A stretch of 11,684 bases of DNA from a virus. Each line of letters opens with the position of its first letter. Position 1 is the stretch's first letter. The translations under genes were made by a program, and so were the position numbers. Where the stretch lies: the UHGV virus genome UHGV-1583584; one strand, 5' to 3'. Below the pieces are notes generated by a model, which made no database searches, was not told where the DNA came from, and saw nothing but the letters and a program-made list of their open reading frames with translations. This document shows, in pieces, positions 3,762-9,483 of this stretch.

Positions 3762-3979
3762 GTCGAACCTCTCTGTTTACTGATAAGCTCCAGATCTTGC
3801 TGGCAACTGGCACAAGTCCGACAACCCTGAACGGCCAGTCGTCTTCGTTCATCTATCGGATCGCCACACTCACAACAATGAGTGGCAGATATAGCCTGGT
3901 GGTTCAGGCGGCGCATTTTTATTGCTGTGTTGCGCTGTAATTCTTCAATTTCTGATGCTGAATCAATTATGTCTGCCAT
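3758..3979 (-). CDS. TraR/DksA-family C4 zinc-finger protein (lambda orf73-like)
   Basis: The 73-aa product has CCECGDPIDERRR...CRTCASCQ, a four-cysteine TraR/DksA-type zinc finger. The surrounding DNA matches lambda in this region as recalled. Its stop overlaps the Ea22-like start in an ATGA arrangement. Confidence 0.8.
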   Translation of the reverse strand: MADIIDSASEIEELQRNTAIKMRRLNHQAISATHCCECGDPIDERRRLAVQGCRTCASCQQDLELISKQRGST

Positions 3980-4030
3980 CTTTCATTAATCCCTGAATTG
4001 TTGGTTAATACGCTTGAGGGTGAATGCGAA

Positions 4031-4055
4031 TAATAAAAAAGGAGCCTGTAGCTCC
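4031..4055 (-). terminator. Rho-independent terminator-like hairpin (minus-strand orientation)
   Basis: GGAGC (4041-4045), loop CTGTA, GCTCC (4051-4055), preceded on the + strand by AAAAAA. On the minus strand the stem is followed by TTTTTTATTATT. It lies just downstream of the minus-strand gene ending at 4078. Confidence 0.45.
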
Positions 4056-4077
4056 CTGATGATTTTGCTTTTCATGT

Positions 4078-4293
4078 TCACCGTTCCTTAAAGACGCCGT
4101 TCAACATGCCGATCGCCAGGCTTAAATGAGTCGGTGTGAATCCCATCAGCGTTACCGTTTCGCGGTGCTTCTTTAGTACGCTACGGCAAATGTCATCGAC
4201 GTTTTTATCCGGAAACTGCTGTCTGGCTTTTTTGATTTCAGAATTAGCCTGACGGGCAATGCTGCGAAGGGCGTTTTCTTGCTGAGGTGTCAT
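4078..4293 (-). CDS. Small lambda-type early-region protein (orf61/orf63-cluster homolog), start assigned to the Met of MTPQQENALRSIARQ
   Basis: The six-frame ORF runs 4078..4359, but the ATG at 4293 overlaps the stop of the upstream small ORF (ATGA). The region is conserved with lambda as recalled. Confidence 0.65.
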   Translation of the reverse strand: MTPQQENALRSIARQANSEIKKARQQFPDKNVDDICRSVLKKHRETVTLMGFTPTHLSLAIGMLNGVFKER

Positions 4294-4373
4294 TGAACAA
4301 GCCCCATGTCGGCAAGCATAAGCACACAGAATATGAAGCCCGCTGCCAGAAAAATGCATTCAGTGGTTGTCAT
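4290..4373 (-). CDS. Candidate 27-aa hydrophobic micropeptide (MTTTECIFLAAGFIFCVLMLADMGLVQ)
   Basis: Short ORF whose ATG overlaps the stop of the upstream gene (ATGA at 4370-4373) and whose stop overlaps the ATG of the downstream gene (ATGA at 4290-4293). The product is a single hydrophobic helix-like segment. It is below the size threshold of the ORF track. Confidence 0.3.
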   Translation of the reverse strand: MTTTECIFLAAGFIFCVLMLADMGLVQ

Positions 4374-4561
4374 ACCTGGTCTCTCTCATCTGCTTCTGCT
4401 TTCGCCACCATCATTTCCAGCTTTTGTGAAAGGGATGCGGCTAACGTATGAAATTCTTCGTCTGTTTCTACTGATATTGGCACAAACCTGACTCCAATTT
4501 GAGCGAGGCTATGTGCCATCTCGATACTCGTTCTTAACTCAACGGGAGATGCTTTGTGCAT
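4370..4561 (-). CDS. Small lambda early-region protein (orf63-like)
   Basis: 63-aa ORF in the conserved position between exo-proximal orf60a and orf61. Assignment is by position and by recalled lambda DNA similarity in this segment. Confidence 0.65.
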   Translation of the reverse strand: MHKASPVELRTSIEMAHSLAQIGVRFVPISVETDEEFHTLAASLSQKLEMMVAKAEADERDQV

Positions 4562-4722
4562 ACAGCTCCCCGTTTATTATTTATCTCCTCAGCCAGCCGC
4601 TGTGCTTTCAGGGGATTTCTGATAACAGAAAGGCCGGGAAATACCCAGCCTCGCTTTGTAATGGAGTAGACGAAAGTGATCGCGCCCACCCGGATATTAT
4701 CGTGAGGATGCGTCATCGCCAT
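4534..4722 (-). CDS. Small lambda early-region protein (orf60a-like), immediately downstream-adjacent to exo
   Basis: 62-aa ORF overlapping the exo stop region, in the same arrangement as lambda orf60a. Confidence 0.65.
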
Positions 4723-5393
4723 TGCTCCCCAAATACAAAACCAATTTCAGCCAGTGCCTCGTCCATTTTTTCGATGAACTCCGGCACCATCTCGTCAAAA
4801 CTCGCCATGTACTTTTCATCCCGCTCAACCACGACATAATGCAGGCCTTCACGCTTCATACGCGGGTCATAGTTGGCAAAGTACCAGGCATCTTTTCGCG
4901 TCACCCACATGCTGTACTGCACCTGGGCCATGTAAGCCGACTTTATGGCCTCGAAACCACCGAGCCGGAACTTCATGAAATCCCGGGAGGTAAACGGGCA
5001 TTTCAGCTCAAGGCCATTGCCGTCACTGCATAAACCATCGGGAGAGCAGGCGGTACGCATACTTTCGTCGCGATAGATGATCGGGGATTCAGTAACATTC
5101 ACGCCGGAAGTGAATTCAAACAGAGTTCTGGCGTCGTTCTCGTACTGTTTTCCCCATGCCAGCGCCTTAGCATTAACTTCCGGAGCCACACCGGTGCAAA
5201 CCTCAGCCAGCAGGGTGTGGAAGTAGGACATTTTCATGTCAGGCCACTTTTTTCCGGAGCGGGGTTTTGCTATCACATTGTGAACTTCTGAAGCGGTGAT
5301 GACGCCGAGCCGTAATTTGTGCCACGCATCATCCCCCTGTTCGACAGCTCTCACGTCGATTCCGGTACGCTGCAGGATAATGTCCGGTGTCAT
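4713..5393 (-). CDS. exo: Lambda exonuclease (Red alpha), 5-prime to 3-prime dsDNA exonuclease
   Basis: The 226-aa product [40 protein letters not shown]... is essentially identical to lambda Exo as recalled. Confidence 0.97.
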
Positions 5394-6477: not shown

Positions 6478-6552
6478 GGCTGAACTCCTGAAAATGGCTG
6501 TGAAAATATCGCCCGCGAAATGCCAGGCTGATTAGGAAAACAGGAAAGGGGA

Positions 6553-6759
6553 TTAGCGATTCAGGCCGTTACCGCGTCCGTCGAGAAAAACTTCCACGAG
6601 CAAATCACGGGTATAAGTGCGCTCGATGCCGCGATGCAGATAAAGCCGTCCGCGTAAATTAGCTGATGCAGTCCAGGTACCATCTTTGTGTTTGACCAGC
6701 ATTCCTGGCATGACCGCACCTCGATTAACGGTCTGCGTTCCGTAATGTTGATGAACCAT
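6553..6759 (-). CDS. Hypothetical protein, first gene downstream of the candidate pL, in the position of lambda kil/N but unrelated in sequence. The start is uncertain.
   Basis: The six-frame ORF extends to 6963 with a TTG start and no SD. Internal ATGs with good SDs are at 6759 (AGGAG 5 nt upstream, product [14 protein letters not shown]..., 68 aa) and at 6711 (GAGGT upstream). The C-terminus ...[18 protein letters not shown] is not lambda Kil (recalled as MDQTLMAIQTKF...). Confidence 0.45.
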
Positions 6760-7036
6760 AAAAACTCCTGCCCGTAAGCTGGGCTGCTGAACATATAGAG
6801 ACTTCTGCGCGTATTCAGGCGGTGGATGGCCGCCGGTTGTCATAACTAAGTCGCCTCGTTGAAGCGACTGAGGTATGAAGTGTTGAGTTGATTTCAGCTG
6901 GTCACACCGACGTTCACGCGTCCGCTTCACCCCTCGCACTCCCCGAAGCCTGCTGAAATTCAAACTGCGGATCTAAGCGGTCATCGCAACGGTGAAACAG
7001 GTGGTTACCGTATCGTTGTGTCGTTGCGATGAATTT

Positions 7037-7110
7037 ATTTAAAACTGTAGTTGTTTTATCGTCAACAACAAAAGTTGTTTTGTCGGTTGTTTTAAATATA
7101 ACTGGTTGTA
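7037..7110 (-). promoter_or_regulatory. Candidate pL promoter with oL operators
   Basis: On the minus strand: -35 TTGACG (+ coords 7060-7065), 17-nt spacer, -10 TTAAAT (7037-7042). The spacer contains the 17-mer AAAACAACTACAGTTTT (7041-7057), 15 of 17 identical to AAAACAACCATAGTTTT in the pR spacer (8595-8611). Further GTTGTT/AACAAC repeats lie at 7064-7080 and 7085-7110. Confidence 0.5.
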
Positions 7111-7205
7111 TTTAGGATGGATTTATTTTGTGACTTGCATCGCATAGCGATAACTGAAGTGAGGTGTGGTGGTTTTTTGGACGGTATGAGTTATGAGGGG
7201 GAGGA

Positions 7206-7236
7206 AAAGAAAACCCGGCGCGGTTGCCGGGTATGA
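7206..7236 (-). terminator. Rho-independent terminator after the lipoprotein gene
   Basis: Minus strand immediately after the stop at 7240: CCCGGC-aaccgc-GCCGGG followed by TTTTCTTTTCC. Confidence 0.6.
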
Positions 7237-7239
7237 TTA

Positions 7240-7620
7240 TCAGTCAGCCCAACCTGATTTCGAGTTTATTTGGGTTTCTGACATTGTGTATTTCTTAATC
7301 GTGTCATCGTTAAAAAGAATAGTAAGTTCTTTTTTCGTACCGTTCGTTCCATTATGGAATAATCCATAGAATGGAATAAAAGTGGTGCCATTAACTTTTA
7401 CTTTTGCAAAGGCGTACTTCCAGATCTCGTTTCCACTGTCAGTATATGAAACAGCATCAGGAGAACCAAAGTAAGATTTAACCTCATTCTTGGTTGTTTT
7501 ACCTTCCTGAAGTTTAGACTGGACACTAATTTCAGTTTCATTTTTGAGTTGCTGGTTGCCTGAAGAAGCACACCCAGCCAATACAGATGCCATCATGGCA
7601 GCGATTAGGATTTTTCTCAT
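7240..7620 (-). CDS. Prophage-encoded lipoprotein (signal peptide with lipobox LAGC); possible BamE/SmpA-OmlA-like fold; candidate lysogenic-conversion or superinfection-exclusion factor
   Basis: The N-terminus MRKILIAAMMASVLAGC has a canonical lipobox, with Ala at +2 after the Cys (no Asp inner-membrane retention signal). The mature part has a pattern resembling BamE (GxTKxEV...GSP...WxY...LTILFxxDxIKxY), which is a motif-level impression only. The gene is AT-rich relative to its neighbours and is followed by a terminator. Confidence 0.8.
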   Translation of the reverse strand: MRKILIAAMMASVLAGCASSGNQQLKNETEISVQSKLQEGKTTKNEVKSYFGSPDAVSYTDSGNEIWKYAFAKVKVNGTTFIPFYGLFHNGTNGTKKELTILFNDDTIKKYTMSETQINSKSGWAD

Positions 7621-7849
7621 TTTATGTTTCCATTCATTATAATCAGAAACATCTTAACATAATGATTCGAAATAAAAACCGCTACGAGATAGGGGGACAT
7701 TTTGCTGACAGTAGCAACAAATCTCAGCTAACAACGAGAATATTTACTGAAATATGCAAACAGATTTGGCGTTCTTATAGAGAATTTAGTGCAATATCTA
7801 ATCCGAGTGGTATAAACCTTAACCTTCGCTCCCTTAAGTCGTAGATAAA

Positions 7850-8539
7850 TTAACCATGCTTCCTGTACGTCTGCGGCATGCTTCCAATGACCTTACCGAA
7901 TATGAACACCCGGTTCATCTCGTCTTTCTCGATCGGGTCCCACGGCGAGTAGCTCTTGTTATCAGAGATAACCAGCAGCTTATCCTTCATCATTTGAAGA
8001 CGTTTTACATGGGCAGTGTCGTCGTACAGAAACGCATAGATGCCATCACCGTCGAAAGATTTAACAGTGATATCAACGAACAGCAGGTCACCTGGTTCGA
8101 TCGTCCCTGACATGCTGTCACCTCGCACGTTAATGATGCGGATATTTTCCGCCTTCCTGCCATCGAACATGTGACGAGCATCGTCAAACGAGTACTCAAC
8201 CGAGCGTAGAACTTCTACAAACTCACGGTTGATTACACCTGGCCCGGCACTGACTTCTATATCAAGAACGTCAATTTTGAAGTATTTGGAATGGCTGACA
8301 GTTGATTGTATTGGTTGCACTGTACTGTCTGACATATTTCCAACGCCAGAAGATAACCATTCTGCGCGCACACCCAAAGCGTTCGCGATCTCCACGATTT
8401 TAGTTGTTTGGTTAGCTTTCCCTGTTTCGATTTTCTGAATAGCAGCCTGGCTAACCCCGACCAAATCCCCAAGCGCCTTTTGTGTAAGGCCTCGCGCTAA
8501 TCTGGCTTCTTTAAGTCTTTCTGAGAGTGTTGTTTTCAT
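7850..8539 (-). CDS. cI: CI-type prophage repressor (N-terminal XRE-family HTH, C-terminal LexA/S24-like autopeptidase domain)
   Basis: The N-terminus LKEARLARGLTQKALGDLVGVSQAAIQKIETGK is a typical HTH. The C-terminus contains GDSM (Ser nucleophile motif) and VKRL (Lys), with a candidate Ala-Gly cleavage site in EVSAGPG. It is transcribed divergently from the cro-like gene. The sequence differs from lambda CI, so this is a different immunity type. Confidence 0.9.
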   Translation of the reverse strand: MKTTLSERLKEARLARGLTQKALGDLVGVSQAAIQKIETGKANQTTKIVEIANALGVRAEWLSSGVGNMSDSTVQPIQSTVSHSKYFKIDVLDIEVSAGPGVINREFVEVLRSVEYSFDDARHMFDGRKAENIRIINVRGDSMSGTIEPGDLLFVDITVKSFDGDGIYAFLYDDTAHVKRLQMMKDKLLVISDNKSYSPWDPIEKDEMNRVFIFGKVIGSMPQTYRKHG

Positions 8540-8545
8540 AGATCA

Positions 8546-8616
8546 AATGTACAACCAAGGTTTTATTTCATCAAACGAAAATGGTTGTTGACTAAAAACA
8601 ACCATAGTTTTAATCT
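8546..8616 (+). promoter_or_regulatory. oR operator cluster with pR (and divergent pRM presumably within the same region)
   Basis: pR: -35 TTGACT (8588-8593), 17-nt spacer, -10 TAATCT (8611-8616), then SD GGAGG (8634-8638) and the cro-like ATG at 8644. Three related 17-bp dyad-type sites: about 8548-8564 (ACAACCAAGGTTTT), 8576-8592 (AAAATGGTTGTTGAC) and 8595-8611 (AAAACAACCATAGTTTT). Confidence 0.6.
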
Positions 8617-8643
8617 TGATTCGGATTAACCACGGAGGTTGTT

Positions 8644-8874
8644 ATGAACCCAGCAATCAAAACAGCGATCAATATCGTTGGTTCACAAAAGAAACTAGGC
8701 GATGCCTGCGAAGTTTCACAGCAGGCCGTCTATAAGTGGCTTCACAACAAAGCAAAGGTATCCCCTGAACATGTCGGCAGCATTGTTACGGCTACTGGTG
8801 GAGTTGTGAAGGCATACCAGATTCGCCCGGATCTTCCGAAGTTGTTTCCACACACCGAAAAGAACGCAGCTTAA
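8644..8874 (+). CDS. Cro-like HTH regulator of the YdaS type
   Basis: The 76-aa product, first rightward gene from pR, contains GSQKKLGDACEVSQQAVYKW...VSPEHVGSIVTATGGVV, resembling the YdaS/Cro-like family pattern as I recall it. It is not lambda Cro. Confidence 0.75.
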   Translation: MNPAIKTAINIVGSQKKLGDACEVSQQAVYKWLHNKAKVSPEHVGSIVTATGGVVKAYQIRPDLPKLFPHTEKNAA

Positions 8875-8943
8875 ATTTCCATTTCACGCTCTTTAACAAT
8901 AAGCAATCAACTTAACAGTCAATTCAAACTAAAGGAGTCAATT

Positions 8944-9483
8944 ATGCAACCACTTACATACCAACAGACTAGCGGATTTATTCCGACTGCGGTGATAAAT
9001 CGTTCTCAAACAAAACAAGCTCCAGGCCACGAAAAAATCCGTGATGCCGTCCGCGCCTGGTCGGCTGTAGATAATCAGGATGTCGTTGCCGCACTCATTG
9101 TGAATGAGTATCGGGAGCAGGGCGACGGCACCATCGATTTCCCTGATGATGTCAGCCGTGCACGCCAGAAGCTGTTCCGCTTCCTCGATAACAAATTCGA
9201 TTCTGAAAAATACCGAAATAACGTGCGTGAACTGACCCCGGCAATTCTGGCGGTACTACCGCTGGAATATCGCGGTTACCTGGTTGAGCAGGATAGCTTC
9301 ATGACTCGGTTGGCTGAAATGGAAAAGGAACTCAGTGAGGCAAAACAGGCTGTCATTCTCAACGCACCACGCCACCAGAAACTGAAGGAAATGAGTGAAG
9401 GTATTGTGTCGATGTTTCGTGTGGACCCGGATCTGGCTGGTCCATTAATGGCGATGGTGACCACCATGCTGGGGGCAATATGA
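8944..9483 (+). CDS. YdaT-like protein in the cII position (function uncertain: regulator or toxin-like)
   Basis: 179-aa ORF with SD AAGGAG 5 nt upstream. The segment LTPAILAVLPLEYRGYLVEQD resembles the YdaT family core as recalled from the Rac prophage ydaS-ydaT pair. It is not lambda CII (97 aa). Confidence 0.6.
   Translation: MQPLTYQQTSGFIPTAVINRSQTKQAPGHEKIRDAVRAWSAVDNQDVVAALIVNEYREQGDGTIDFPDDVSRARQKLFRFLDNKFDSEKYRNNVRELTPAILAVLPLEYRGYLVEQDSFMTRLAEMEKELSEAKQAVILNAPRHQKLKEMSEGIVSMFRVDPDLAGPLMAMVTTMLGAI

Follow-up and report, generated by a model that had tools for sequence, protein, structure and literature searches.

The stretch of virus DNA UHGV-1583584 analyzed here (11,684 nucleotides (nt), hereafter the window) carries a single 381-bp gene for a predicted lipoprotein of 126 amino acids (aa), located at 7240-7620 on the minus strand directly behind the cI repressor gene. 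This gene is lysogenic-conversion cargo (a 'moron'). It is assigned by profile match to an already named family, SEN1984 / PHROG 3135, and the protein is a member of the BamE-domain superfamily, not a BamE orthologue. Its most likely function, proposed here tentatively, is an envelope-level block of incoming phages, acting by receptor blocking or on DNA entry. The family name, the category of prophage lipoprotein cargo and the rex slot were already known. The current work adds a presence/absence pair of phages (PhiR26_1 and PhiR34_1), the breadth of the carrier elements and two recurrent phage hot spots, as well as a conserved candidate promoter of the cassette, an adjacency to BstA and the departures of the family from BamE.

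Judging from its matches, the window comes from a temperate phage of the lambda-like kind. Escherichia phage PhiR26_1 shares 99.8% identity with it over 6900-8650, and this segment, which holds cI, the lipoprotein gene and oL, is present at a coverage of at least 80% in 69 of 5426 complete E. coli genomes. The cargo status of the gene was assessed on the following features:

7850-8539, minus strand: cI-type repressor of 229 aa with a helix-turn-helix (HTH) and an S24 peptidase domain, identified by Pfam and PHROG and annotated as cI in PhiR26_1; upstream of the lipoprotein gene.
7621-7849, minus strand: spacer from the cI stop to the lipoprotein start, 229 nt, 34% GC.
7240-7620, minus strand: lipoprotein precursor, 126 aa, SEN1984 / PHROG 3135 family, predicted BamE-like fold.
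7232-7850, strand not assigned: presence/absence segment of 619 bp found by alignment; PhiR34_1 holds 122 unrelated bp instead.
7203-7232, minus strand: intrinsic terminator, ACCCGGCAACCGCGCCGGGT plus TTTCTTTT, with a 7-bp stem, a 6-nt loop and a T-tract; it ends the cI-lipoprotein unit.

PhiR34_1 is a close relative of PhiR26_1 from the same phage set. It aligns to 6501-7231 (95.8%) and to 7851-8900 (96.7%), and the junctions of the indel fall exactly at the cI stop codon and the terminator stem. Because PhiR34_1 keeps both flanks and replaces 7232-7850 with 122 unrelated bp, the lipoprotein gene is a clean cargo indel. Its base composition differs from that of its surroundings: the gene has 38.1% GC and the cassette 7232-7850 36.2%, compared with 47.0% in cI and 50-52% in the arms on either side. 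The terminator is strong, with 6 GC pairs in the 7-bp stem (dG -14.1 kcal/mol, z -3.2). It is also present in PhiR34_1, which is without the lipoprotein gene, and in this phage type it therefore closes both the cI operon and the cassette. In all contexts, most copies of the family are followed, no more than about 45 nt after the stop codon, by a hairpin with a T-run. The gene thus shows the presence/absence pattern, the terminator and the base composition of a moron. The initial annotation, made from the window alone, had named a lower GC content, which holds, and an intrinsic terminator directly after the gene, which is indeed there and strong but is not the cassette's alone, as PhiR34_1 has the same one.

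The slot of the gene is defined by the two operator regions:

8540-8643, strand not assigned: oR/pR/pRM region, between cI and the YdaS-type cro.
7037-7110, minus strand: oL/pL, with operator-like repeats in common with oR, recognized by sequence comparison.

Read leftward on the minus strand, the order is oR, cI, the 229-nt spacer, the 126-aa open reading frame (ORF), the terminator, oL/pL, kil, gam, bet and exo; to the right of oR lie the YdaS-type cro, a YdaT-type 'cII', O and P. The repressor matches Pfam Peptidase_S24 (1.2e-18) and HTH_3 (5.4e-13) and PHROG 4 (8.7e-73). The assignment of oL is supported by operator-like sequence common to oL and oR, since 7039-7057 is 89% complementary to 8595-8613 in the cI/cro intergenic region and 7055-7080 pairs with 8573-8598. 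A candidate leftward promoter, TTGACG-17-TTAAAT, can be read at 7037-7065. The gene therefore lies where it had first been placed, downstream of cI on the same strand and between oL/pL and oR, and the proposed rex-equivalent slot is sustained as well, with no terminator between cI and the gene.

Lambda keeps rexAB in this cI-distal slot. Both lambda rexA/rexB and bstA of the Salmonella prophage BTP1 share the slot and orientation of the lipoprotein gene, after cI and before the terminator and oL/pL, but have no sequence or structural relationship to it. From the rex slot and orientation, expression in lysogens is expected. Prophage genes behind the repressor are made in every lysogen and have repeatedly proved to have defence or conversion functions, as in the case of rexAB and bstA. 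Rex and BstA act from the cytoplasm or the inner membrane by abortive infection. The present protein is predicted to be exported and lipid-anchored, so that any defence would have to act at the envelope.

This prediction rests on the N-terminus of the precursor:

7570-7620, minus strand: signal peptide and lipobox L14-A-G-C17, read from the sequence; Cys17 is the predicted lipidated first mature residue.

The precursor begins with MRKILIAAMMASVLAGC, followed by ASSGN, and has a positive n-region, a hydrophobic core and the lipobox L-A-G-C. The lipobox Cys is invariant in 46 relatives. Cys17 is followed by Ala (+2) and Ser (+3), so there is no Asp at +2, in agreement with the canonical LAGC lipobox without an inner-membrane retention signal that was described at the outset. 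The product of 7240-7620 is thus probably an outer-membrane-type lipoprotein.

The ORF is a real gene and not a chance ORF, as follows from the number of its homologues and from the pattern of substitution. A word-indexed search returned 228 homologues at E<=1e-3, and an exhaustive search matched 1774 clusters at 50% identity. Synonymous sites are saturated (proportion of synonymous differences, pS, 0.7-0.9), the proportion of nonsynonymous differences (pN) is ~0.1, and dN/dS lies below about 0.1. Across enterobacterial genera 59 of 126 columns are invariant, and the ORF is full-length and intact in about 100 loci. Loss of the cassette's -35 box and of the terminator that precedes the cassette in relatives, described below, could be taken as a sign of a non-functional chance ORF or decaying remnant. 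Such a reading has practically no probability left: the intact copies, the low pN at saturated pS, the invariant columns and a confident fold prediction all oppose it, and the conservation data exclude it. The strong purifying selection across genera suggests instead that the protein's partner is a conserved host component and not one of phage origin that evolves fast.

The assignment to the family rests on two results. PHROG 3135 is matched over the full length (E 2.9e-48, residues 1-124 on profile positions 1-114 of 114). In RefSeq, the identical protein is named SEN1984 family lipoprotein, in records with about 99.9% identical DNA; older records name it 'outer membrane protein assembly factor BamE'. 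SEN1984 of the Salmonella island ROD21, at 378 bp, is close to the gene in length, and Phyre2 gave a BamE-like prediction for it too. No SEN1984 model came back from NCBIfam release 20.0, so the family name rests on the RefSeq label; the NCBIfam matches obtained (Ag473, TrsH/TraH, YgdI and others) were at the level of the signal peptide and far below the cut-offs.

The mature domain of ~110 aa is predicted to have a BamE/SmpA-OmlA fold, a protein-binding fold of the periplasm. A structure model built from 46 diverse relatives reached a predicted local distance difference test (pLDDT) of 85.5 and a predicted TM-score (pTM) of 0.72, and the BamE fold is found in this three-dimensional model. It supersedes a first model from 17 close homologues, which was poor (pLDDT 68). 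Comparison of the family profile with the E. coli BamE sequence by hhalign gave 90.6% probability over 92 columns. The window protein scores 21.8 bits (E 1.6e-4) against Pfam BamE (PF04355), below the gathering cut-off of 23.2, and 37 of the 46 relatives match this model at E<=0.01. A PDB sequence search with the single protein found nothing, the family profile reached BamE in the PDB at E 0.06-0.4 only, and a BFVD fold search returned SmpA/OmlA lipoproteins of Pseudomonas phages only.

Several features separate the family from BamE. A family-specific insert of 14 residues, GTTFIPFYGLFHNG, forms a loop between the strands; it is very hydrophobic and highly conserved, with a nearly invariant P83 and a pLDDT of only about 55. 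A conserved SSGN...ET segment follows right after the lipidated Cys and forms an extra strand in the model. The BamE segment RPDINQGNY, which is part of the BamD-binding surface, lies mostly opposite a 7-column gap in the family in the hhalign alignment; the family has SSGNxxLxxET instead. Because of the insert, the SSGN...ET segment and the lack of a counterpart to RPDINQGNY, the protein is a member of the BamE-domain superfamily and not a BamE orthologue, and the older RefSeq name over-annotates it. The lipoprotein gene also differs from bamE in its carriage on mobile elements and its sporadic distribution among species, and it is additional to the host's own bamE. Of the resemblance to BamE noted in the initial annotation, the predicted fold and the profile alignment stand, whereas the Pfam score below cut-off and the differences just listed speak against orthology.

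The same differences bear on the idea that the protein is a BamE mimic, which would sit on BamD/BamA, replacing BamE or next to it, and retune the essential beta-barrel assembly machine (BAM) through its BamE-like core and the extra hydrophobic loop. Such a mimic might tilt assembly toward the barrels that the phage itself encodes (porin, Lom, omptin), or it might hide BamA from phages that depend on it; short-tailed Shiga toxin (Stx) phages use BamA as receptor. This role is unlikely. The fold speaks for it, but the Pfam score (21.8 against 23.2) and the profile matches to BamE in the PDB (E 0.06-0.4) are weak, no counterpart to RPDINQGNY was found in the alignment, and the 14-residue insert is present. 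Moreover, unrelated binders, among them BLIP, BtiO, OsmE and TpgA, have this fold too. Many carriers were seen as loci of +/-5-6 kb only, so that wider outer-membrane-protein cargo lies outside the view, which also weakens the case.

These other proteins with the fold, namely BLIP, BtiO, OsmE and the N-terminal SmpA/OmlA-like domain of TpgA, are at 11-20% identity and have different partners and contexts; none is phage-borne, unlike the lipoprotein family. They raise a further alternative, a periplasmic inhibitor or immunity protein that would act, in the manner of BLIP or of Bacteroides BtiO of the type VI secretion system (T6SS), against an incoming hydrolase or toxin such as a T6SS effector, a colicin or a lysozyme-type enzyme. 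This alternative appears improbable, because the resemblance is at the level of the fold only (11-18% identity), no consistently adjacent effector or toxin gene was seen in the loci examined, and the gene is surrounded by phage modules and not by T6SS or bacteriocin genes.

The loci examined comprised 80 from IMG/VR and 22 from species-representative genomes, together with GenBank phages and plasmids. Homologues in Enterobacterales share 70-85% aa identity. In phages, the family occurs at two separate hot spots. At the first, the gene is located downstream of repressors on the same strand, 48-75 bp after the repressor stop or behind other cargo, and these repressors fall into three unrelated sequence clusters. 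At the second, it is part of tail modules and occupies the place just in front of the tape-measure gene, with the major tail and chaperone-like genes, and often also a KilA-N/Ant-type gene, ahead of it. It also adjoins the integrase in Pseudomonas phage Lodos and, elsewhere, gtrABC-like ORFs, which were called from ORF sizes and order. Outside phages, the family was found on 135 plasmids, mostly conjugative Burkholderia plasmids (111 of the 135 hits are Burkholderia), and on a 48-kb plasmid that is phage-plasmid-like, its annotated genes being those of a phage tail. The family owes its PGAP name to SEN1984 of ROD21, which is an excisable pathogenicity island of Salmonella. The family has thus spread over phages, phage-plasmids, conjugative plasmids and a pathogenicity island. 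Distant relatives (44-54% identity) reside in seemingly ordinary chromosomal neighbourhoods of Nitrospirae and other metagenome-assembled genomes.

Among 185,579 species genomes, searched with patterns, 22 loci were found. Fifteen of them are from Enterobacterales; a marker search recognized a prophage context in 10 of these, and inspection added two more (L096 and L104). The lipoprotein gene is therefore sporadic among species and is not a single-copy core chromosomal gene, as BamE is. Among phage records, only six contain a homologue that is full-length and at least 46% identical.

The cargo that lies between cI and the lipoprotein gene in relatives includes BstA, a ParA-like ATPase, a P63C-domain protein and several proteins of unknown family. 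In locus L088, BstA (3942-4910; PADLOC PDLC02356, E 1e-123) is located between cI and the lipoprotein homologue. In Salmonella phage S107 (locus L008, 2489-3256), orf59 takes the same place and is a cluster-mate of BstA by sequence clustering alone. In these relatives, the cI-distal slot looks like a small defence or cargo island.

Other carriers show further neighbours. In Citrobacter prophages (L005-L007 and L099, ~6991-7911), a conserved protein of 302-306 aa with a central transmembrane-like segment is encoded between cI and the lipoprotein gene, as a further piece of cargo in this slot; it had no Pfam or PADLOC match. A 46%-identical homologue, as on Burkholderia glumae plasmid p85s3p (L114, 6986-7384), is encoded on MPF_F conjugative plasmids; it has a zeta-toxin gene on one side and DsbD-N/YadA-like adhesin genes on the other, with TraG-N nearby. 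The whole genome of PhiR26_1 (L113) holds PD-lambda-1, an OmpD/NmpC-like porin, Bor, Lom and an omptin in addition to the lipoprotein, an unusually rich cargo of envelope and defence genes.

Expression of the gene was considered by aligning the leaders of all copies and comparing 52 distinct leaders. The elements in the window are as follows:

7651-7659, minus strand: extended -10 promoter-like element, TGTTAAGAT, found by leader comparison; predicted transcript start near 7644.
7636-7641, minus strand: TATAAT, specific to the window, 15 nt from the ATG; relatives read TTGCAA here, within the conserved GATTGCAAT.
7628-7631, minus strand: ribosome-binding site GGAA, 7 nt before the ATG, read from the sequence; GGAAA or GGAT in relatives.

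From genome to genome, the gene is accompanied by the 45-60 nt or so ahead of its ATG, and the rest of the spacer 7621-7849 is not common to the cassettes of other genomes. An extended -10 of the form TGnTA(A/G)GAT appears in register in 26 of the 52 distinct leaders, about 30-38 nt before the ATG, and 7 more have the hexamer only. In several loci the -10 is joined, at a spacing of 16 nt, by a -35 (TTGACC) that comes immediately behind the preceding gene's terminator. We infer that TGnTA(A/G)GAT is the conserved promoter of the cassette. In the window, the -35 and the preceding terminator have been lost except for a remnant, GGTTTTTATTT. The initial annotation had given the gene a -10 of its own, TATAAT. 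The hexamer is present at 7636-7641, but it was rejected as a functional -10: it is not conserved in homologues, and, because it is only 15 nt from the ATG, a start ~7 nt downstream would fall at or inside the GGAA ribosome-binding site. The conserved promoter is probably the extended -10, TGTTAAGAT. A promoter-like TTCTCA-18-TATAAT on the plus strand (7614-7643, 10 of 12 matches), antisense toward cI, was judged to be probably a chance occurrence, since ATTATAAT is nearly palindromic.

In relatives, a perfect 10-bp palindrome, GATTGCAATC, flanked by TTCC...GGAA, is located between the conserved -10 and the ribosome-binding site. At this site (7621-7650, minus strand) the window reads GATTATAATG. 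The palindrome may serve as an operator, or it may form a hairpin in the leader and so occlude the ribosome-binding site.

Nothing terminator-like was found in the cI-to-lipoprotein spacer 7621-7849. For this reason, read-through of the cI transcript would be the simplest route of expression in lysogens. In 13 distinct leaders, the gene begins 48 bp past the cI stop with neither a promoter-like element nor a terminator; without such an element, the gene in these phages would be readable only as part of the cI message. The layout predicts expression in lysogens by two routes, namely read-through from pRM/pRE and the cassette's own promoter.

The proposed envelope-level block of incoming phages, a plausible reading that the initial annotation had raised as superinfection exclusion, would work as follows. 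At the periplasmic face of the outer membrane, the lipoprotein may bind a component of the host envelope that Enterobacteriaceae share in conserved form. The lysogen would then be protected at the envelope stage of phage attack, with DNA entry hindered or the receptor masked from the periplasmic side, in the way that T5 Llp masks FhuA. The recurrence of the gene at lysogen-expressed conversion and defence slots, twice beside BstA, favours this function. Ltp-type lipoproteins act on the tape-measure protein, and the position of the gene directly before the tape-measure gene in tail modules recalls them.

A template by analogy may be seen in the unrelated lipoproteins Llp, Cor and mEp Lpp. T5 Llp binds FhuA (bioRxiv 10.64898/2026.03.26.714494), and the Lpp proteins of mEp021 and mEp010, unrelated prophage lipoproteins, exclude OmpA- or LamB-dependent phages (PMC11893012). 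T5 Llp, phi80/N15 Cor and mEp Lpp are likewise small phage-encoded lipoproteins made by the resident phage. They differ from the present protein in being about 60-80 aa long and located beside receptor-binding genes, whereas the present protein has ~110 mature aa and a predicted BamE fold and is J-independent. The mEp021 lipoprotein, whose exclusion activity is experimentally proven, was considered as a relative and rejected; it is 72 aa long, is located next to J and aligns in the signal peptide only.

A number of results weigh against a phage block. A PADLOC scan assigned no defence family to the lipoprotein, and PHROG 3135 is labelled 'unknown function'. The literature searched on SEN1984, BamE-like phage proteins, SmpA/OmlA morons and the PhiR phages contained no functional data for any member. 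Homology to Cor was limited to residues 1-29, the signal peptide (PHROG 1119, E 0.066), and homology to mEp021 Lpp to 16 aligned columns, again in the signal peptide. No coupling to the receptor-binding type of J was found: the J C-terminus of PhiR26_1 recurs with at least 95% identity in 45 phage records, and of these PhiR26_1 alone has the lipoprotein gene, which lies about 30 kb from J there. The missing -35 of the cassette promoter also has to be set on this side. Finally, strong purifying selection and the presence on conjugative plasmids and a pathogenicity island would fit a general envelope or fitness function equally well.

Such a function is possible, though somewhat less likely than the phage block. 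The protein would then be a conversion factor for host fitness or virulence that strengthens or remodels the envelope, as Bor or TraT do, with effects on serum, bile or osmotic tolerance or on membrane integrity. Lambda Bor and plasmid TraT confer serum resistance. Carriage on ROD21 and on conjugative plasmids supports this role, and so does the other outer-membrane cargo of PhiR26_1 (porin, Bor, Lom, omptin). However, no phenotype for SEN1984 or another member was found in the literature searched, and the recurrent position behind repressors and beside BstA points to conflict between phages.

The gene is a cheap and well-defined target for experiments, as a single gene with an isogenic-like natural pair, PhiR26_1 with it and PhiR34_1 without it, both grown on MG1655. 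If the phage block is true, the protein would be a new fold among the few envelope-level phage blockers. A contact with BAM, if true, would be relevant to outer-membrane biology and to BAM-directed antibiotics, and a BamE mimic would give phages, plasmids and islands a new handle on outer-membrane biogenesis. If neither exclusion nor BAM contact holds, the protein is an ordinary cargo lipoprotein.

Some features of the neighbouring genes were also observed. An Rfam scan of the whole window gave no credible RNA. In the 136-aa ORF at 6553-6963 (minus strand), the match to Kil is confined to the C-terminal ~68 aa (NCBIfam PRK11354, 1e-16; PHROG 294, 2e-38); the N-terminal 68 aa contain an arginine-rich GVKRTRERR and have no Pfam match. 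The PhiR26_1 annotation shows no N-type antiterminator from pL to kil (window positions 6964-7036), and it is not obvious how transcription from pL gets past the terminators further along in this phage. The candidate pL is closely followed by an 11-nt inverted repeat without mismatches, TCATCGCAACG / CGTTGCGATGA, located at 6981-6991 and 7022-7032, with 30 nt between the arms. This repeat in the pL leader may be a site for protein binding or an RNA element of the nut/put kind.

On the other side of oR, the slots of cro (8644-8874, plus strand) and 'cII' (8944-9483, plus strand) hold YdaS-type (Pfam YdaS_toxin, 7e-17) and YdaT-type proteins, in the style of Rac-like prophages. The 'toxin' names of these proteins are probably misnomers for Cro/CII-like regulators.

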